A DNA stretch of 64,000 nucleotides, taken from Promethearchaeota archaeon. Its GTDB lineage: Archaea; Asgardarchaeota; Lokiarchaeia; Sigyniarchaeales; SOKP01. The stretch spans positions 32,001 to 96,000 of the forward strand of contig JAHPZJ010000030.1 of NCBI GenBank assembly GCA_019058245.1, given 5' to 3'. A program made the translations under genes and the position numbers. The number at the start of each line of letters is the position of its first letter. The first letter of the stretch is position 1. Of this stretch, positions 1 through 32,991 are shown piece by piece. Below the pieces are notes generated by a model. It saw only the letters and a list, made by a program, of their open reading frames with translations. It was not told the DNA's origin and did no database searches.

Positions 1-504
1 TTTATTTAAGAATGTATAATCTACTTCTTTGTCAATACATAATTTAATAAATGTTATTACCCATCCTACTGATGATTGATACCAATTTTCCCAATCAAGA
101 GGAAGATCTTTGTAAGATAATTCTATCTTATTATCAGAGATTACATTTGGTATAATTTCACCGAAATTAAAAAATCTTCTGTGTAAACGCTGGTATTTCT
201 CTATAGCCATTTCAATGTCTCCCTTAAGGATAATAGCCTGGTAAAGTGTCGTAAGCCAACGATATGCTTCCCTTATAGCCCATTTAAGAACAATTTCCTG
301 ATTATTTCGTGCTTCAACATAACATATTGCGTCAAAACATTCTCTATAATCCTCTAAAGGATACCATGATCCCGTCAGTATTCTTTTTTGAAGAAATTCT
401 TTTGCTCGGTCTGATAGTATTCTGTCATATTCACCCCATCCTTTAGAGCTTGTTTTGATTGATTTTACAATCGTTATTATTAACGATCCTTTTACTTGCT
501 TCAC
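1..504 (-). CDS. H-NOX/V4R-fold-like protein, array copy 1 (3'-truncated by window edge; not in ORF track)
   Basis: Manual translation from GTG at 504 behind AAGGGGA: MKQVKGSLIITIVKSIKTSSKG...RILTGSWYP...RLHRRFFNFGEI...YTFLNK. 168 open codons, colinear with the three 184-aa paralogs. Confidence 0.85.
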   Translation of the reverse strand, partial: MKQVKGSLIITIVKSIKTSSKGWGEYDRILSDRAKEFLQKRILTGSWYPLEDYRECFDAICYVEARNNQEIVLKWAIREAYRWLTTLYQAIILKGDIEMAIEKYQRLHRRFFNFGEIIPNVISDNKIELSYKDLPLDWENWYQSSVGWVITFIKLCIDKEVDYTFLNK

Positions 505-701
505 ATAAATCCCCTTATTTTTCCTAATTAAACCTAGTTTAACTAATTAAAAATTACTTAATCTGATCTAAGCTAGTTGTCCTAATCTAAACTTTCTTAA
601 GATTATCCAAATTAACTTAGCCAATAAAGTAACTTTTAAGAGTTTTTCAAAAATCTAGTGTTTATTTGACTATAAAAATGTTTACATATAGATATAATCC
701 G

Positions 702-714
702 TGTTATATCAACA
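702..714. promoter_or_regulatory. Inverted repeat TGTT-N5-AACA upstream of array copy 1 promoter
   Basis: TGTTATATCAACA. The same motif lies at 3192-3204 at nearly the same distance from a TATA-like box, and again at 2445-2457. Confidence 0.45.
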
Positions 715-851
715 TAATTAAGTTATAGCCTCTTTTGTCTATGAATAATAAGTATTATTTGTTTTTAGAATTATTACATGATTTAAAGCATCTCCAAGAA
801 ATAAGTCCATAATTCATAGATTGAAGCCTTTAGTTCTAAATCTTGAATTTT

Positions 852-1406
852 TCAAGGAGTCCATGAATATTTGATTTTAGTCCAACCTTCTCTTTCCCAT
901 GATTTATTAAGGAAGACATAATCGGGTCTTTTACCAGTACATAATTCAATAAATACTATACCATACCCTATTGTTACATTATAATAATTTTGCCAATCAC
1001 GAGGCATGTCTACAAAAGTCATATGTAGTTCTCTATCAGAGATGAATTCTGTAACTATTTCTCCAAAATTAAAAACTCTTCTGTGAAAACGTGAATATTT
1101 CTCAAAAGCCATTTTAATATCTTCCTTATCAACAGTGGAGTGGTAAATCGTTGTAAGTAAACGTTCTGATCCATTTATACCCCATTGAACCAAATCTGAT
1201 GGATTATTTCGTGCTTCAACAAAGCATAAAGTATCATATAATTCCCGATACTCTTTAAAAGGATACCATGATCCCATCAGAATTCGTTGTTGTAGAAATT
1301 CTTTTGCCTTGTCTGAAAGTCTCTCATTATATGACTTCAATCCTTTAGGACTAGTTTTAATTGCCTTTACAAGCGTTATAGTAATTGCTCCTTTCACTTG
1401 TTTCAA
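852..1406 (-). CDS. H-NOX/V4R-fold-like protein, array copy 2
   Basis: 184 aa, TTG start with GGAGA SD; shared motifs VKG, RILxxSWYP, RFHR, NFGEI, NKSW. Confidence 0.8.
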   Translation of the reverse strand: MKQVKGAITITLVKAIKTSPKGLKSYNERLSDKAKEFLQQRILMGSWYPFKEYRELYDTLCFVEARNNPSDLVQWGINGSERLLTTIYHSTVDKEDIKMAFEKYSRFHRRVFNFGEIVTEFISDRELHMTFVDMPRDWQNYYNVTIGYGIVFIELCTGKRPDYVFLNKSWEREGWTKIKYSWTP

Positions 1407-1687
1407 ATTAATCTCCTTACCTAGCTTAAATTATTCTATACATTTTTTACCTAATATGAAGATTTAGAGAATCTTCCAAAATTATAGTAAAAGATGGATT
1501 ATTTAAGTATATGTAAATCATTAATTTTCGTATTATTTTAGCTTAAAAAATTTTTTGATTTCTTCTTTTATCAGTAATGAAGAAAATTGTTTTTAGCACT
1601 ATAAAATGATTTAGAATATATCTTAAAGGATAGTGTGTTCTTATCCGATTGGAGCCTTCATTTCTAATATATAGGTTCATATACTTT

Positions 1688-2242
1688 TCAAGGAGTCCAT
1701 GAAAGCTTGATTTTAGTCCAGCCTTCTCTTTCCCATGATTTATTAAGGAAGATATAATTGGGTTTTTTGTTAATAGTAGATTCGACAAATGAAATTACCC
1801 ACCCCATTGCTATGTAATAATAATTTGACCAATCACGAGGAAGATCTATATAAGTAAATTCTATCTCTGTATCAGAGACAAATTTTGCTTTAATTTCACC
1901 AAAATTAAAAACTAGTCTGTGAAAACGCGTATATTGTGTTGTAAGTGCTTGAAGATTTCCTTTTTCAATAATAGATTTGTAAATGGTTGAAAGCCAAACT
2001 TTTGACTCGCCTAATCCCCATCCTGTTAAAGTTTTTGGATCATTTTTTGCTTCAATTAAACATAAAGCATCAAAACATTCTCTATATGCATCATAAGGAT
2101 ACCATGATCCCGCAAGAATCCTTCGATTAAGTAAATCTTTTGCTTTATCTGAGAGAATCTGGTTATATGGTCCCAATCCTTTAGGACTTGTTTTAATATT
2201 CTTTATAATCGTTACTGCCATTGATCCTTTTACTTGTTTCAA
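1688..2242 (-). CDS. H-NOX/V4R-fold-like protein, array copy 3
   Basis: 184 aa paralog, TTG start with GGGGA SD. Confidence 0.8.
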   Translation of the reverse strand: MKQVKGSMAVTIIKNIKTSPKGLGPYNQILSDKAKDLLNRRILAGSWYPYDAYRECFDALCLIEAKNDPKTLTGWGLGESKVWLSTIYKSIIEKGNLQALTTQYTRFHRLVFNFGEIKAKFVSDTEIEFTYIDLPRDWSNYYYIAMGWVISFVESTINKKPNYIFLNKSWEREGWTKIKLSWTP

Positions 2243-2497
2243 ATAAATCCCCTTAGATAGAATATTGAAAAATAATATTCTTTTTGAAGAGTTCTACAAA
2301 AATATATGCAAATTAAGATATAAAAAGTTTTATCACAGTATTAATTTCATTTCATTTTAATGGATGATATTTTAGATATCTTTGTCAATTTATAAAAAAT
2401 AGAATATTATTTGAGATATATCGAGAATAATATGAAGATAAACTTGTTTTAATAACAGTTGCAAGTCTTAATTTTAACGAATAGAATTTTCAATTTG

Positions 2498-3052
2498 TTA
2501 TGAATTCCAATAGTATTTAACTATGGTCCAACCCTCGTTTTTCCATGATTTATTTAAGTATTCATAATTTACTTCTTTATCAAGACACATTCCTATAAAT
2601 ACGATTGCCCACCCTATAGCTGTATGATACCAATTTTCCCATTCTCGATCCATATTTGTATACGTAAATTTTACTTCGTTATCACAGATAAATTCTGGCA
2701 TAATTTCACCAAAATTCATAGCCCTTCTGTGAAATCGTATATATCTCTCAACTGCAGATTCGATATCTTCTTTAATAACTGAAGACTGATATATTGATGA
2801 AAATGTTCTTTTTCCTTCCATCATACCCCATTGAACTAAGATTTTTGGATCATTTTTTGCTTCTATAAAACATAAAGCATTATAACATTCTTTATAATCT
2901 TCAAAAGGATACCATGCTGCGCTTAGAATTCGTTGTTTAAGAAATTCTTTTGCTTTATCTGAAAGTAACCTGTCATATTCACTTCTTTTTTGATGATTTG
3001 CTTTAATGGACTTTACAATTGTTAATATTGTCGCTCCTTTTATTTTTTCCAA
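2498..3052 (-). CDS. H-NOX/V4R-fold-like protein, array copy 4
   Basis: 184 aa paralog, TTG start with GGGGA SD. Confidence 0.8.
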   Translation of the reverse strand: MEKIKGATILTIVKSIKANHQKRSEYDRLLSDKAKEFLKQRILSAAWYPFEDYKECYNALCFIEAKNDPKILVQWGMMEGKRTFSSIYQSSVIKEDIESAVERYIRFHRRAMNFGEIMPEFICDNEVKFTYTNMDREWENWYHTAIGWAIVFIGMCLDKEVNYEYLNKSWKNEGWTIVKYYWNS

Positions 3053-3291: not shown

Positions 3292-3876
3292 CTAAAAAGA
3301 TTTTTCTGAATATAAATTGTTTAAATGTGTTATCCATTCCATTCCAAGATTTTCTAGATGAGATATGAAATTTAATGAACTTAATTTTTTAATATCTTGA
3401 AACTCATTTTTATATTCTTCATAAAGTTCTATAAAATATTTATGTATTAAATTTTCAAACGATTTAATATGAATATATGGATTTAGGAAGAATATAACAG
3501 TAAAATTATCTAAATCAAAAATAGAATGAAATTTGATATTAGAGCCCTTAAGATTAATACAGGGCACATCTTGAATATTAATTTCTTCTGAAAATCTTTC
3601 TAAGGCACTTATAAACATTGGAATGAGTTCTATATTAAAGCATTCACTTTTTGATGGATCTTTCATATTCTTTTTAAGATAAAATTCTAAAGCTCCCTTA
3701 TGACTCTCAAATAATGCAATTGTTTTTCCTTCTTTATCTGATAAGATACACCCAATAAACGGGGGTGGAGAAAAATCATAAATACTTTTAAAACTGAAGT
3801 CCTTTTTACTCTGCTGATTGTCTAATTCTAAGAAAGCATTTAATGTCATTTTTTTATTCTCACTATCTTTATCCAA
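3292..3876 (-). CDS. Hypothetical protein, longin/profilin-like domain
   Basis: Pattern CILSDKEGKTI...LIPMFISALERFSEEI...beta strands...C-terminal helix resembles Asgard longin-like domains. Confidence 0.5.
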   Translation of the reverse strand: MDKDSENKKMTLNAFLELDNQQSKKDFSFKSIYDFSPPPFIGCILSDKEGKTIALFESHKGALEFYLKKNMKDPSKSECFNIELIPMFISALERFSEEINIQDVPCINLKGSNIKFHSIFDLDNFTVIFFLNPYIHIKSFENLIHKYFIELYEEYKNEFQDIKKLSSLNFISHLENLGMEWITHLNNLYSEKSF

Positions 3877-5464: not shown

Positions 5465-5989
5465 CTAGTGTGAATACTTTTCAAAAAGAATTTCTGTCAT
5501 TACATTAAAAGCTTTCTCGACATTCTCTCCTGTTTTAGAAGATAATTCTACAAAAGAAGCAAGATTGTATTTTTTTGCGGCTAATATTCCATCATCTCGC
5601 GATACTGCACGGAAATCATGCAAATCTACTTTCGAACCAATTAACATTATAGGTATTTCTCCTGCATGTTCTCTTATTACTTGAGTCCAATCAGGTAAAT
5701 GATCTAATGATGTTTGATTAGTGATATCGTATAGGAAAAATGCCCCATTTGCACCTTTACTATATTGAGAAAGTAAAAAGCGAAATCGTTCTTCTCCACC
5801 AAAATCCCATATTTGTAATTTGACTTTCTTATCCTTGAAGGAGGTGGTCTTACTATAAAAATCTACTCCAATTGTTAATTTGAGGTCTTCCATAAAATAT
5901 CCAGAGATATATCTCATAGTAAGGGATGTCTTTCCTACAGATGCATCACCAAGCATCATAATTTTAAATGTATAATCGTAATTCGTCAT
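5465..5989 (-). CDS. Rab-like small GTPase
   Basis: GDASVGKT, TIGVDF, WDFGGEERF, SKVD, LSSK. Confidence 0.93.
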   Translation of the reverse strand: MTNYDYTFKIMMLGDASVGKTSLTMRYISGYFMEDLKLTIGVDFYSKTTSFKDKKVKLQIWDFGGEERFRFLLSQYSKGANGAFFLYDITNQTSLDHLPDWTQVIREHAGEIPIMLIGSKVDLHDFRAVSRDDGILAAKKYNLASFVELSSKTGENVEKAFNVMTEILFEKYSH

Positions 5990-27380: not shown

Positions 27381-29171
27381 TTGATTAAAACCAAAGATAA
27401 TGTTTGGATTTTCACATTTGAATATGCGGGGATAGTGAAAGTTGGAGGTCTTGGAGAAGTACCCGCAAATCAAGCTAAAAATTTAGCTAATGATTATGAA
27501 ATCACAGTATTTATTCCTTCACATGGTCAATTGCAGAACTTAGAAAAATCATATAGTGTGGAAAAACTCCTTTTTAATTGTGTGGGACTAATAAATCCTT
27601 CTGAATTTGGAATAAATGAACCAGAGACTAGTTATAATATTTCCTTTTACAAGATAAGAATTAATAATGTGAATATAATTTTATTACACGGAGAAAATCC
27701 ATTTACTTCTAGATATATTGATGATAAAATCGTTTATAATCCAGATACACTTAGTGGAAAAATTTGTCTTTTTAGTATAGGTATGCGGTGTTATATTGAT
27801 TTTTTAATTGATAATCGCAGAGAAGAACTACCTGATATAATACACATCCATGATTATCATGCTGTGATAGCTTTTTTTTGCATAAAACAAAGATTATCAA
27901 AAAGTGGCTTAGACGTAGCTTCTTTAATTACTATCCATTTATTAACTTGGCCAAGATATCCAATTGAATTTTATAGTGCATGTGGATTAGATCATACTCC
28001 TATAACTATAAATTTGAAAGAAGGACTTCAAGCATTAACAATATATGAAATATTTTCGATTTGTGAAAAAAAAAGCGAAATCTATCAACAGCCTACAGTA
28101 GAGATGATAGGGGCATTTATAAGTGATTTGGTTACTACTGTAAGCCAGTCATATTTAAAATCAGATATAATTCCTAATTGTGGTAAAGATTTGATTGAAT
28201 TTAAATCAAATTTTATATGGGATGGATGTGATTGGGATTATAATGAAATCCTCCAACAGGTATTAAAAAATCATGAACAAGAAATGAAACATGTCTTACA
28301 TTTATCACTTGAAAAAGAACTTACATTGAATGACATTAAAGAATATTTGTTAACCTATAAGTTATCTCATTTGAATAAAAGTCCATTAATTCAATCAGAA
28401 AAAGTTCTAAAAGTCATTAATGAGATTTCAGATGAGAATAAATTTACGAGAAATGGATATATCAAATCCTTTAATCAATCTGGTCCATTAGTAATTACAA
28501 CTGGAAGAATTTCTCCCCAAAAAGGATTTGAAACAATTCTAGAAGCTATACCAAAGGTCATTGATGCAATTCCTGATGCTAAGTTCTTATTTCTCATATT
28601 GCCTACTGATTATAGCTTAAATGAAATTAAGGTTTATGCAGATTATGTTAAGAGATATCCAGATAATTTAAGGATAATCTATGGTGTAGCTACGGATATA
28701 TTTCATCTTGCACATATTTCAGCTGATGTTTATTGTGCAATGTCCAGATGGGAACCTTTTGGTATTATTGCTTTAGAAGCTATGGCTGTAAAATTACCAG
28801 TTATTGCCACAAATGTGGGCGGATTTCAAGAAACTATCATAGATATTAGAAACTTTCCTGAAATTGGTACAGGGATTTTAATTGAGAAAGAAAACCCCGT
28901 TCAATTTGCTGAAGCATTAATTTCTCTCTTTAAATTAAAGGAGATTTCTGAAAAAGTTAAAGAAAAAGAAAAGATTTATGAAGTTGAAAATTTTCGCTTA
29001 GTAAATCAGATTCCTGATAAAATACTTGAATCTCTTGTTCTTTTGGATCCTAATTATTATAATAAAGTTAGAGAAAACTGTCATAAAAGAGTAGAAAATA
29101 ATTTTAGATGGAATATAGTCTCTAAGAAACTAATTGACTTATACCTAATGATAAAAAATCTACGGTTATAG
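27381..29171 (+). CDS. glgA: Glycogen synthase (GT5)
   Basis: KVGGLG, HIHDYH, GRISPQKG, SRWEPFG. Confidence 0.88.
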   Translation: MIKTKDNVWIFTFEYAGIVKVGGLGEVPANQAKNLANDYEITVFIPSHGQLQNLEKSYSVEKLLFNCVGLINPSEFGINEPETSYNISFYKIRINNVNIILLHGENPFTSRYIDDKIVYNPDTLSGKICLFSIGMRCYIDFLIDNRREELPDIIHIHDYHAVIAFFCIKQRLSKSGLDVASLITIHLLTWPRYPIEFYSACGLDHTPITINLKEGLQALTIYEIFSICEKKSEIYQQPTVEMIGAFISDLVTTVSQSYLKSDIIPNCGKDLIEFKSNFIWDGCDWDYNEILQQVLKNHEQEMKHVLHLSLEKELTLNDIKEYLLTYKLSHLNKSPLIQSEKVLKVINEISDENKFTRNGYIKSFNQSGPLVITTGRISPQKGFETILEAIPKVIDAIPDAKFLFLILPTDYSLNEIKVYADYVKRYPDNLRIIYGVATDIFHLAHISADVYCAMSRWEPFGIIALEAMAVKLPVIATNVGGFQETIIDIRNFPEIGTGILIEKENPVQFAEALISLFKLKEISEKVKEKEKIYEVENFRLVNQIPDKILESLVLLDPNYYNKVRENCHKRVENNFRWNIVSKKLIDLYLMIKNLRL

Positions 29172-29192: not shown

Positions 29193-30362
29193 TTGATGCT
29201 TTCAAAAAGAACTGTTTTTCTCAGTTTAATCTCAGTTTTAATTTTTGGTACAGCAGGTATGGCCCTAATATATTATCTTCCTCCATATCTAAAAGATCTT
29301 GGATTCAGTCCTTCAATTGTACAATTCATTACTACAATTTATCCTTTTGCTTTGATTTTTTTACCACAACGCTTTGGTAGGTTATCAGATAAAATTCAAA
29401 AAAGATATATCTTTATTATAGTGGGATCAATTGGTACGAGTTTAATCTATTTATCTTTAATATTTTCAAAGAATCTAATTCTAATAATGATATTATTAAT
29501 GATTTATAGTGTTTTTAATGCTAGTTATAGGTTAAATTTTACTCTGTATCAAGAATTAACAAAAAATAATCCTAACTTCGTAGTTTATTATAATGCAATT
29601 TCAGTATTTGGATGGTTTCTTGGTTCCCAACTTGGGGGTATCTTTATAGATATATTTGGAATTTCACACATATTTATATTTTTCTTAATCATCTCAATCA
29701 TTAATTGTGCGATTATTTTATTTATTAGAGAGAATAGAAAAGATATACTTGAATACTATAATGATTTAGAAATTGAAAATCTAAATAATAACATAGTAGA
29801 TGAGGTAGATGAACAACCACAAATTTCTAAGGCACTTTATATAGCACTCTTTTCAAGACATTTCGGAGTTAGACCAATAATTACAATTATAGCAATTCTA
29901 ATGGCTTTACATTTGAGTAGTAATACTCAGATTGGATTTCTAATCGGATTTAACCCATTACTTCAATTCTTTTTAATGCTTATTACTGGTAAATTTATTT
30001 CAAAAAAGAATGAGAAGTATGTCTTAATGTTAGGTTTTTTTTTAAGCTGTGGAGCTATCTTAGGGTATATGTTTGCTACTGACTTTATTAGTTTCTTTTT
30101 AGCTCAAATAATGGTTTCTGCATCTTTTGCACTATTTTGGAATGTCACCCAAATTTATATTTCTCAAAAAACCAATCTAAAGAATAAGGGTAAATATCTA
30201 GGCTATGCAAATTCAAGTTTTTTTTCAGGGGGTTTTTTTGGAGGCCTTTTCTTTAGTGTATTATTGTTATTTAATTCAGATTATTATGCTTTTATGTGGA
30301 TAATGCTTATATTTCCTTTAATTTCTACATTAATTGTATTTTTTAAATTTAAAAGTGAATAA
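29193..30362 (+). CDS. MFS transporter (paralog 1)
   Basis: 12-TM pattern, motif A GRLSDKIQKR. Confidence 0.88.
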   Translation: MMLSKRTVFLSLISVLIFGTAGMALIYYLPPYLKDLGFSPSIVQFITTIYPFALIFLPQRFGRLSDKIQKRYIFIIVGSIGTSLIYLSLIFSKNLILIMILLMIYSVFNASYRLNFTLYQELTKNNPNFVVYYNAISVFGWFLGSQLGGIFIDIFGISHIFIFFLIISIINCAIILFIRENRKDILEYYNDLEIENLNNNIVDEVDEQPQISKALYIALFSRHFGVRPIITIIAILMALHLSSNTQIGFLIGFNPLLQFFLMLITGKFISKKNEKYVLMLGFFLSCGAILGYMFATDFISFFLAQIMVSASFALFWNVTQIYISQKTNLKNKGKYLGYANSSFFSGGFFGGLFFSVLLLFNSDYYAFMWIMLIFPLISTLIVFFKFKSE

Positions 30363-30495
30363 TTATTGAATTTTGCATAATTTTGTTTTTTATTCAGCAA
30401 TTAGCATCTTAATATACACCTTTGTAGAAAATTAAATAAATCTGACAATATTTTAGAGACTACTTTAAACAAATTTATAGTAGGATAAAGAAAGA

Positions 30496-31665
30496 TTGAT
30501 ATTATCAAAGAAATCTGTAATCTTCATTCTGGGAACCGTTTTCTTCATCTATGTTGCTATAATGTTGTTGTACACTTATTTACCTAAATATTTATTATTT
30601 TTAGGGATAGAATCACCAATTATTACTTTAACAATGACTTTTGCAATGTCTACCTTCTTCATTTTTCCACCATTATTAGGAAAGTATTCAGATAAACTCC
30701 AAAACAGAATATATTTTATTATGTTAAGTCCTTTAGGAACGTTCACTACTTTAATTCTACTTCTTTTTACTAAAAATATTATAGTCCTAAATATATTAAT
30801 TTTCATTTTTGGCTTTTTTATTTCATTTGGAACTATTTGTTTTACTCTTTTTATTGAATTAGTTCAAAATGACAAAAAGTGGATTTCTTATTATAACTCA
30901 ATCTGTTCAATTGGCAATTTTACGGGTATCATAATAGGTGGTATATTTATAGACTTTTTTAACATTGAGAAATTGTTCCTCTTTACATTAATCATGTTCT
31001 TGCCAAGTATTATTTTTAATATATTTATCAGAGAAAATCGACAATTAATACTAGAAAATAATGTTGAAATATCAGAGAATACTCATAAAGTAGGAGTGAT
31101 AAATAAACTTAAAGAAGAACATATCTCGAAATCAATATACCTGAGTCTTTTTTTTAGGAATTATGCTATTATACCAATCTTAAACATTCTTGTAATTATA
31201 ATAGGGTTCTACTTAGAAATTAATACTCAAATTGCATTACTCTTGGGTATTAACCCTTTATTACAGTTTTTCTTAATGCCATTCATAGGAAAGAAATTAA
31301 AACAAAAAAATATTAAAGGTGTTTTGATTTTAGGATATTTTTTATCAGTTATTGTTATTATTGGGTATATTATAGCAGATGACTTTTGGAGCTTCTTAAT
31401 TTTTCAAGTTCTAATTTCTTTAAGTTATTCCCTATTTTGGATGGCAACAACTGTTTATATTGCTCAAAATTCGACTCCTATCAACAAAGGGCGTTATATG
31501 GGATATGCTACTGCTAGCATTTTTGCTGGCACAGCATTTGGAGGTGTATTTTTTAGTTTATTGTTAGCATTGTTTAATTCTAATTACTATATATCTATAT
31601 CATTTATGATTATTTTTCCAACAATTTCTACGTTAGTCATATTGTTTAATTTTAAAAATAATTAG
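30496..31665 (+). CDS. MFS transporter (paralog 2)
   Basis: GKYSDKLQNR; colinear with neighbours. Confidence 0.88.
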   Translation: MILSKKSVIFILGTVFFIYVAIMLLYTYLPKYLLFLGIESPIITLTMTFAMSTFFIFPPLLGKYSDKLQNRIYFIMLSPLGTFTTLILLLFTKNIIVLNILIFIFGFFISFGTICFTLFIELVQNDKKWISYYNSICSIGNFTGIIIGGIFIDFFNIEKLFLFTLIMFLPSIIFNIFIRENRQLILENNVEISENTHKVGVINKLKEEHISKSIYLSLFFRNYAIIPILNILVIIIGFYLEINTQIALLLGINPLLQFFLMPFIGKKLKQKNIKGVLILGYFLSVIVIIGYIIADDFWSFLIFQVLISLSYSLFWMATTVYIAQNSTPINKGRYMGYATASIFAGTAFGGVFFSLLLALFNSNYYISISFMIIFPTISTLVILFNFKNN

Positions 31666-31815
31666 TAATTTAAAGGAGAAATTTTAATTACTGGTTTAAA
31701 AAATGAGGTCATTGGTCATTATTTAAATTTTTTTAAAAAAGTAATTATTTTATACTGATTTTTTATAATTACTAAAAGCAAATATTAATTGAATTTGTTA
31801 GATAGGGAATATTAA

Positions 31816-32991
31816 TTGATCTTATCAAAAAAGTCTGTTATTTTAATTCTATTATCTGTTTTTATTGTAAATACAGCCTCAATTACCCTTATAACATATT
31901 TACCTAGATATTTAGAATATTTAAGTATAGAAAGACCATTAATACAACTGGTCATTACTATTTTTCCTTTAACTTCTTTTGTTTTTCCACCGATATATGG
32001 CCATTATTCAGATAAAATTCAAAAGAGGTATATTTTTATTTTTATTGGATTTCTTGGGATGTCTTTTATTTATTTTTTATTGCTATTTCTGAACCAAAAT
32101 TTATTCATCCTAGTACTATTAATATTCATTTTTGGTTTTTTTATGGGATCATATAGCTTATTATTAACCCTTTTCGCTGAATTAGTAGAAGATGATAAGA
32201 CTTTCATTTCTTACTTCAATGCATCAGTTGTTGCTGGTTGGTTTGTTGGAGCTCAATCTGGTGGTATTTTTATTGATATCTATGGAATTGAGAAGATATT
32301 CTTGTTTGCTTTCCTAGTTTTTTTACCAAACTTAATTATAATGTTTTTTATAAAAGAAAAAAGATCATTGATTTTAGAAAGTTTTAATAGAGAAACAGAG
32401 AAAAACTCAAATGATCTTGTTTTAAATAATAATCAAGGAGATATTTCAATTTCTAAATCAATTTATCCCGGTTTATTTTTCAGAAATTTTAGTCTCAAAT
32501 CAATTTTGCCAGTATTGGTAATTATTATGGGGATTCATTTAAGTAGTGATACAGAAATTGGATTTTTGATTGGAATAAATTTTTTTTTACAATTCTTCCA
32601 GATGTTATTAATTGGAAAGATATTAACTAATGATAATCTTAAATCTTTTATGATCATTGGCTATGCTTTAAGCACAATTACAATTTTTGGATATATAATC
32701 TCAACTAATTTTTGGAGCTTTTTAGTTTGCCAATTTTTAGTTTCTTTTAGCTATTCTCTGCATTGGGCAGCAACAGTAACTTACATCTCTAAAAAAACTT
32801 CACCCAAAAATAAAGGAAAATATATGGCTTTTGCGAATTCAAGTGTTTTCTCAGGAAGTTTTGCAGGTGGTATATTATTCAGCTTATTATTATCTGCTTT
32901 TAATTCTAATTATTATATTGTTATGTATTTTATGATAATATTCCCCGCAATTTCCACTTTTATAATTCTCCTTAAATTCAAGCCTGACTAA
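31816..32991 (+). CDS. MFS transporter (paralog 3)
   Basis: GHYSDKIQKR; colinear with neighbours. Confidence 0.88.
   Translation: MILSKKSVILILLSVFIVNTASITLITYLPRYLEYLSIERPLIQLVITIFPLTSFVFPPIYGHYSDKIQKRYIFIFIGFLGMSFIYFLLLFLNQNLFILVLLIFIFGFFMGSYSLLLTLFAELVEDDKTFISYFNASVVAGWFVGAQSGGIFIDIYGIEKIFLFAFLVFLPNLIIMFFIKEKRSLILESFNRETEKNSNDLVLNNNQGDISISKSIYPGLFFRNFSLKSILPVLVIIMGIHLSSDTEIGFLIGINFFLQFFQMLLIGKILTNDNLKSFMIIGYALSTITIFGYIISTNFWSFLVCQFLVSFSYSLHWAATVTYISKKTSPKNKGKYMAFANSSVFSGSFAGGILFSLLLSAFNSNYYIVMYFMIIFPAISTFIILLKFKPD

Follow-up and report, generated by a model that had tools for sequence, protein, structure and literature searches.

The stretch of DNA analysed here, called the window throughout, comprises 64,000 nucleotides of a Promethearchaeota archaeon (GenBank assembly GCA_019058245.1, contig JAHPZJ010000030.1, positions 32,001 to 96,000 of the forward strand, or G000:C30:32001-96000) and derives from a Loki-type Asgard metagenome-assembled genome (G000) that is 76 % complete. 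At the left edge of the window, whose GC content is about 27 %, lies a tandem array of small paralogous genes, in which a first-pass annotation, made from the letters of the window, had recognized at least four colinear, gap-free copies. A search of the whole assembly bears out the array and, with the contig extended leftwards as had been proposed, brings it to eight complete copies of 184 aa each, which lie head to tail on the minus strand at G000:C30:28891-35052 (L010 12891-19052). The window edge cuts through the array, and the four in-window paralogs constitute its right-hand half. The first gene in the direction of transcription, c1 (window 2498-3052, minus strand, 184 aa, TTG start), has c6 as its nearest paralog (71 % identity). 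It is followed by c2 (window 1688-2242, minus strand, 184 aa, TTG start), which shares 88 % identity with the corresponding ortholog of another Asgard genome, G206; by c3 (window 852-1406, minus strand, 184 aa, TTG start), the protein used for structure modelling; and by c4 (window 1-504, minus strand), which is truncated by the window edge and complete in the genome at L010 15950-16504, where it encodes 184 aa from a GTG start.

A gap-free alignment of the four in-window copies gives 52-57 % identity, and one of all eight, also free of gaps, gives 46-71 %. The encoded proteins are stand-alone, basic (pI about 9) and rich in tryptophan, with 5-10 Trp residues each. The residues previously listed as invariant, namely KG(5-6), WYP(47-49), C61, H108 and NFGEI(113-117), are indeed constant in the four in-window copies, but among 26 close homologs position 61 may also be occupied by Ser, Gly or Met, and H108 is replaced once, by Tyr. 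The pattern described earlier for positions 131-136 is likewise recovered, in the form [YFW]x[DN]xx[RPL]. Elsewhere in the genome (G000:C20:24528-24659), 40 C-terminal residues of a family member stand alone; they share 53 % identity with c3 and probably represent a pseudogene remnant.

All eight copies start with TTG or GTG, as the first-pass annotation had noted for those within its reach, and seven are preceded by a AAGGGGAT-type Shine–Dalgarno box 4 nt upstream; at c7, only a weak GGAAGTGA is found in its place. Members of the same family in other genera mostly start with ATG. Little weight is given to the non-ATG starts, since they are also fairly common elsewhere in the window (first starts of 14 of the 47 other open reading frames). 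The gap between c6 and c7 is only 34 nt, and this pair may therefore be co-transcribed. The spacer upstream of c4 (window 505-851, minus strand, 347 nt) contains a TATA-like box at -174 and a AAGGGGAT Shine–Dalgarno box, and over about 380 nt it is 99-100 % identical to the spacer upstream of c5, which lies just beyond the window edge (L010 15603-15949, equivalent to G000:C30:31603-31949). This identity falls sharply at the gene borders, and the adjacent genes c4 and c5 are about 53 % identical. As the orthologous spacers of G206 are only about 65-70 % alike, the twin 347-nt spacers look either like an assembly artefact or like the product of a gene conversion that took place recently in G000 and was confined to the spacer. 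A dispersed repeat or miniature inverted-repeat transposable element was considered and rejected, because the sequence occurs only twice genome-wide, both times within the array. An Rfam search of the long array spacers returned no known RNA.

The AlphaFold2 model of c3, computed from an input alignment of 26 sequences, reached a predicted local distance difference test score (pLDDT) of 90.8 and a predicted template modelling (TM) score of 0.86, with all five models at pLDDT 89-91. The first-pass annotation had proposed an H-NOX/V4R/Bet3-like fold and its examination by structure prediction and Foldseek; in the resulting comparison with the PDB, the best 39 matches of the c3 model are all H-NOX proteins (TM score 0.58-0.70), followed by TRAPP Bet3-type subunits and the PoxR sensor domain (TM score about 0.5). 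An independent all-against-all structural search (VIA) gave H-NOX a Z score of 13.3 at a root-mean-square deviation of 3.7, with 170-173 of the 184 residues aligned and residues 4-184 of the model colinear with residues 1-180 of H-NOX. The same search matched YslB (Z 10.6), Thorarchaeota TRAPPC3 (7YH2, Z 9.9), BcsD (Z 9.6), Bet3 (2CFH, Z 9.4-9.5), DmpR/PoxR (Z 8.7-9.3) and the V4R protein MJ1460 (Z 8.2), each over only about 125-145 residues. The model thus supports a full two-lobe H-NOX architecture, with a predicted N-terminal helical lobe and a C-terminal alpha/beta lobe, rather than the shorter V4R/Bet3 core, and places the array proteins within the H-NOX/V4R/Bet3 fold superfamily that had been expected. 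This shared fold serves as a gas sensor, an aromatic-ligand sensor and a scaffold of Rab guanine nucleotide exchange factors, and V4R and Bet3 proteins have small-ligand cavities. The array proteins share the alpha/beta core with V4R and Bet3-TRAPPC3 proteins (7YH2, 2CFH and PoxR/DmpR; Z 8.2-9.9) but differ from them in the additional H-NOX-like N-terminal helical lobe and in lacking the V4R Cys/Zn motif, the C-terminal region reading NKSW..EGW instead. Neither the V4R (PF02830) nor the TRAPP (PF04051) Pfam profile matches any array copy, and the weak V4R matches found in the genome belong to other genes, on contigs C31 and C13.

The family affiliation of the array proteins emerged from sequence comparison at long range. 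Pfam and NCBIfam scans of the copies yielded nothing meaningful, and PF09536 (DUF2378) found no match at E<=1 among the window proteins or in a six-frame search of the genome. Profile searches of PDB sequences produced only spurious low-complexity matches (CagY and HIV Env). In a phmmer search of 1.8 billion representatives, 99 relatives were detected, including a bacterial cluster (P0041, E 9e-17) named 'TIGR02265 family' by its source and others from Desulfococcus, Alcanivoracaceae and Deltaproteobacteria; PF09536 matches 16 of the 54 relatives examined, and the neighbours of the copies in the ESM Atlas are Myxococcota hypothetical proteins, DUF2378 and V4R proteins. These comparisons identify the array genes as a distant, Asgard-specific branch of bacterial DUF2378/TIGR02265, a Myxococcus paralogous family of unassigned function, and give substance to the earlier remark that the N-terminal half recalls an uncharacterized myxobacterial family. 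Both groups consist of proteins of about 180 aa, encoded in multiple copies per genome, and a joint alignment reveals a common skeleton of conserved columns: K5, G6, W47, Y48, P49, G76, [DN]113-F-G115, G147, K168, W170, T176 and W182. The array is distinguished by being archaeal and tightly tandem, with up to eight copies, and the invariant Y-x-R-[FL]-H and Y-x-D motifs are the Asgard clade's own. A weak sequence bridge to H-NOX is provided by a bacterial member (L051:1181-1738), which matches the family profile at 1e-29 and Pfam HNOB at 5e-4. In the literature searched, DUF2378/TIGR02265 was found to be named only in passing, in one transcriptomics study (paper and preprint), and the search retrieved no description of an H-NOX-like array in Asgard archaea.

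Bacterial relatives of the array proteins are fused C-terminally to Ser/Thr kinases (Pkinase), PilZ domains or a receiver domain (Response_reg), architectures that point to a regulatory or sensor module. In two metagenomic relatives, P0047 (556 aa, three domains) and P0066 (374 aa, two domains), complete DUF2378-like domains follow one another head to tail, joined by linkers of about 4 residues; these may be natural fusions of tandem paralogs.

If the array were a bank of gas sensors, as the first-pass annotation had proposed, H108 would ligate haem as it does in H-NOX, and the proteins would respond to NO, O2 or CO. The array proteins resemble H-NOX (4U99 of S. oneidensis and 6MX5 of Nostoc) in several respects: the fold is colinear over its full length, the stand-alone size is 180-190 aa, the N-terminal xKG and the [WF]G of helix D are common to both, and the alpha-F-equivalent helix carries a His, in a low-confidence alignment within one turn of the proximal-His position. 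Moreover, H108 is strongly constrained, being conserved in 25 of 26 and 31 of 32 members of the Asgard clade from four genera, where it forms part of the clade-specific motif Y104-x-R106-[FL]-H108, and it is the sole histidine of copies c2 and c4. The exceptions within the clade are one Tyr and one Gln, the latter in copy 1 of the G206 array. In the wider family, however, position 108 is occupied by Trp, Phe, Arg or Asn. When the family was aligned by profile–profile comparison (hhalign) with canonical H-NOX alignments, built from 5 and then 123 sequences, the match was colinear but weak (probability 3-29 %), and in these low-confidence alignments the proximal His of H-NOX fell on R106 or F107, 1-3 residues ahead of H108. 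None of them puts H108 on the proximal His, and the earlier reading of a His at the haem-ligand position as evidence for haem or gas sensing is not supported. The YxSxR motif of H-NOX, which contributes to propionate binding, is also absent; at the same low confidence, its positions align with Y/F131-x-D/N133, its Arg has no counterpart, and an acidic residue in place of the Ser would be unfavourable for propionate binding.

Genomic evidence argues in the same direction. Unlike H-NOX proteins, the array copies do not match Pfam HNOB (PF07700) at E<=1, nor was a match found genome-wide at E<=0.01, whereas the positive-control genome was matched. Among 400 Asgard genomes, 7 contain canonical H-NOX genes that pass the Pfam HNOB cut-off, for example at L066-L069 (G272, G047, G079 and G052). 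None of the 7 carries arrays, and none belongs to g1 or g5, the two genera rich in arrays; these genes may be genuinely archaeal or may stem from bin contamination. ALAD and porphobilinogen deaminase are universal enzymes of the tetrapyrrole trunk pathway, and neither was found in the array-bearing genomes G000, G206, G155 and G153, although the same searches were positive in 11 of 14 control genomes. Apart from G000, these carriers are 100 % (G206), 96 % and 94 % complete. The absence of both enzymes implies that the four carriers cannot make tetrapyrroles, and a repertoire of at least eight haem proteins is unlikely in such hosts. Taken together, these observations do not uphold the proposal of gas sensing, and haem-based sensing by the array appears most unlikely.

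The near-invariance of C61, R106, H108, N113, E116 and D133 amid variable positions could alternatively indicate that these polar residues form a metal-binding or active site, and Zn is known to be bound by Asgard V4R/TRAPPC3 proteins (PMC10933270). On the other hand, C61 is replaced by Ser, Gly, Met or Val in several members that keep H108, none of the six residues is conserved in the wider family, and the structural matches of the c3 model include no enzyme. A metal-binding or catalytic protein is thus considered very improbable.

The family was detected in 19 of 400 Asgard genomes, among them 8 of 53 in the organism's own genus and all 6 of genus g5, with tandem arrays of 5-8 or more copies appearing repeatedly, so that the description of an expanded family proves apt. 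Between the array of G000 and the syntenic array of G206, five ortholog pairs (74-88 % identity) can be recognized, while three copies in G000 and two in G206 have no counterpart, which implies copy gain and loss. The ratio of non-synonymous to synonymous substitution rates (dN/dS) between orthologous copies of the two species is 0.26-0.45, as compared with 0.06-0.31 for neighbouring genes, and the copies are therefore real genes under purifying selection. The dN/dS between paralogs is given little weight, with dS being compositionally constrained in a genome of 27 % GC. A maximum-likelihood tree places the Asgard sequences in one clade (support 94/88) among bacterial DUF2378-like sequences, and all copies of genus g1 are monophyletic (100/99). 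Since copies group largely by lineage, the arrays seem to have expanded largely within lineages, and the tree points to separate tandem expansions.

An alternative is a conflict or immunity array, in which diverged tandem paralogs in a variable island would act as immunity proteins or decoys rather than as sensors. The patchy distribution, the location of the array in a hypervariable slot, the gain and loss of copies together with their lineage-wise grouping, and a dN/dS that is relaxed relative to most neighbours are all consistent with it. However, a PADLOC search for defence systems gave no match, no toxin, nuclease or mobile-element gene was found beside the arrays examined, and the relatives carry fused signalling domains, leaving a role in conflict unlikely.

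The gene order at the locus is Ras GTPase, longin-fold protein, eight copies, metallophosphoesterase and Ras GTPase, and NurA and archaeal RNA polymerase subunits are also encoded nearby. This gene content, together with nearest database proteins from Promethearchaeota/Lokiarchaeota metagenome-assembled genomes, marks the host as a Loki-type Asgard archaeon. The longin-fold protein, encoded immediately upstream of the array (window 3292-3849, minus strand, 185 aa, likely ATG start at 3849), is conserved in Lokiarchaeia and has no Pfam match; about 25 of its N-terminal residues are predicted to be disordered. Its model (pLDDT 77) matches the longin domain of SYBL1/VAMP7 (Z 10.4), a Lokiarchaeota longin domain (Z 9.9) and sedlin (Z 8.1), and its best 50 structural matches are all longin or roadblock domains. 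A Ras/Rab-like small GTPase of 174 aa lies at window 5465-5989 (minus strand), and the other GTPase at L010 10019-10600. The core of TRAPP is composed of longin proteins, Bet3-superfamily proteins and a Rab, and the locus thus evokes a TRAPP-like module, in which Bet3-superfamily paralogs, together with the adjacent longin protein, would regulate the flanking Rab-like GTPases. Apart from the gene order, this possibility draws on the structural matches to Thorarchaeota TRAPPC3 and Bet3 (Z 9.4-9.9), on the two- and three-domain tandem fusions of relatives, which hint at an association of copies, and on a lone copy in G210 that abuts a Ras GTPase.

Comparison across genomes weakens the association. 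The array occupies a slot at G000:C30 about 28.1-37.5 kb, between a NurA/Rce1-like/GTPase block and a metallophosphoesterase/GTPase block, and this slot measures 3.1-14 kb across the genus (L061-L065) and holds unrelated cargo in G177, G193, G216, G184 and G199. The two GTPases are therefore backbone genes conserved across the genus, with the array as one of several alternative inserts; the GTPase at window 5465-5989 is 83-95 % identical in five congeneric genomes without the array and 97 % identical in G206, which has it. The longin gene is kept in G177 in the absence of the array, and its adjacency to the array is restricted to four close relatives (G000, G198, G206 and G211); it is regarded as a neighbour only. 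Elsewhere, arrays lie beside ETF/acyl-CoA dehydrogenase genes (G155) or a pyruvate formate-lyase gene (G130), and a GTPase was present in the flanks examined at only about 3 of about 15 independent loci (mostly within 1.5 kb on either side, and more widely for six), a proximity that is unremarkable in genomes rich in such GTPases. Given in addition that H-NOX is the better structural match and that the TRAPP profile is unmatched, a TRAPP-like module is judged very unlikely.

Several further observations concern the surroundings of the family. In G206, at L044 9070-10215 (G206:C25), a lone eighth family copy adjoins an actin-family gene (Pfam Actin, E 1.5e-132), which is presumably a lokiactin. 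Open reading frames of 182-185 aa in the same slot of other genomes were considered as divergent copies and rejected as unrelated membrane proteins (hhalign probability 0.3 %). At some distance from the array, the window contains three tandem paralogous transporters of the major facilitator superfamily (29193-32991, plus strand, 389-391 aa, each with TTG as the first start), which lie downstream of a glycogen/starch-synthase-like glycosyltransferase (window 27381-29171).

On balance, the eight independently translated paralogs are probably haem-free small-ligand or adaptor modules that represent a DUF2378 branch of the H-NOX fold and act in trans. In each copy, the cleft between the lobes would hold a small non-haem ligand or else a partner peptide, and the clade-invariant Y104-x-R106-x-H108, N113-F-G115, Y131-x-D133 and W138-x-N140 would anchor a common chemical group. 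In the low-confidence alignment, this cluster presumably maps to the parts of H-NOX that line its haem pocket, namely the start of helix A, helix D, helix F, the F-beta1 loop, the end of beta2 and the start of helix G. Variable hydrophobic positions, such as residues 7-13 of helix A, could set the specificity of each copy. The signal may then be passed in trans to unlinked partners, by analogy with stand-alone bacterial H-NOX proteins, and such signalling fits the fusion of the same domain to Ser/Thr kinases, PilZ and receiver domains in bacterial relatives. Lokiarchaeia probably acquired the family from bacteria, with repeated amplification thereafter.

Some considerations weigh against this interpretation. 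The ligand, the cavity and the partner are all inferred, and no operon partner is conserved across genera among the loci examined. The conserved aromatic residues could simply fill the core, in which case the proteins would be adaptors and not receptors. The tree is midpoint-rooted, and the direction of transfer depends on the root. Finally, haem scavenged from a partner organism could possibly supply the cofactor. A bank of cofactor- or ligand-loaded receptors operating with the adjacent longin protein and Rab-like GTPases, or alternatively the ligation of a scavenged tetrapyrrole by H108, is regarded as distinctly unlikely. If true, the former would represent a prokaryotic forerunner of the Bet3-longin-Rab (TRAPP-type) switch, built from an H-NOX-shaped domain, and the latter would constitute the first archaeal H-NOX-type gas-sensor repertoire.

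The members of the family are small, soluble and confidently modelled, with a sharply defined invariant site, which makes them easy to approach by ligand screening and by crystallography. Solving one copy would also assign a function to bacterial DUF2378 and to its fusion partners, the kinases, PilZ proteins and receivers. Asgard archaea are the closest archaeal relatives of eukaryotes, and the repeated amplification of the family to arrays of 6-8 copies in Lokiarchaeia hints that diversity in a recognition function of some kind is under strong selection.

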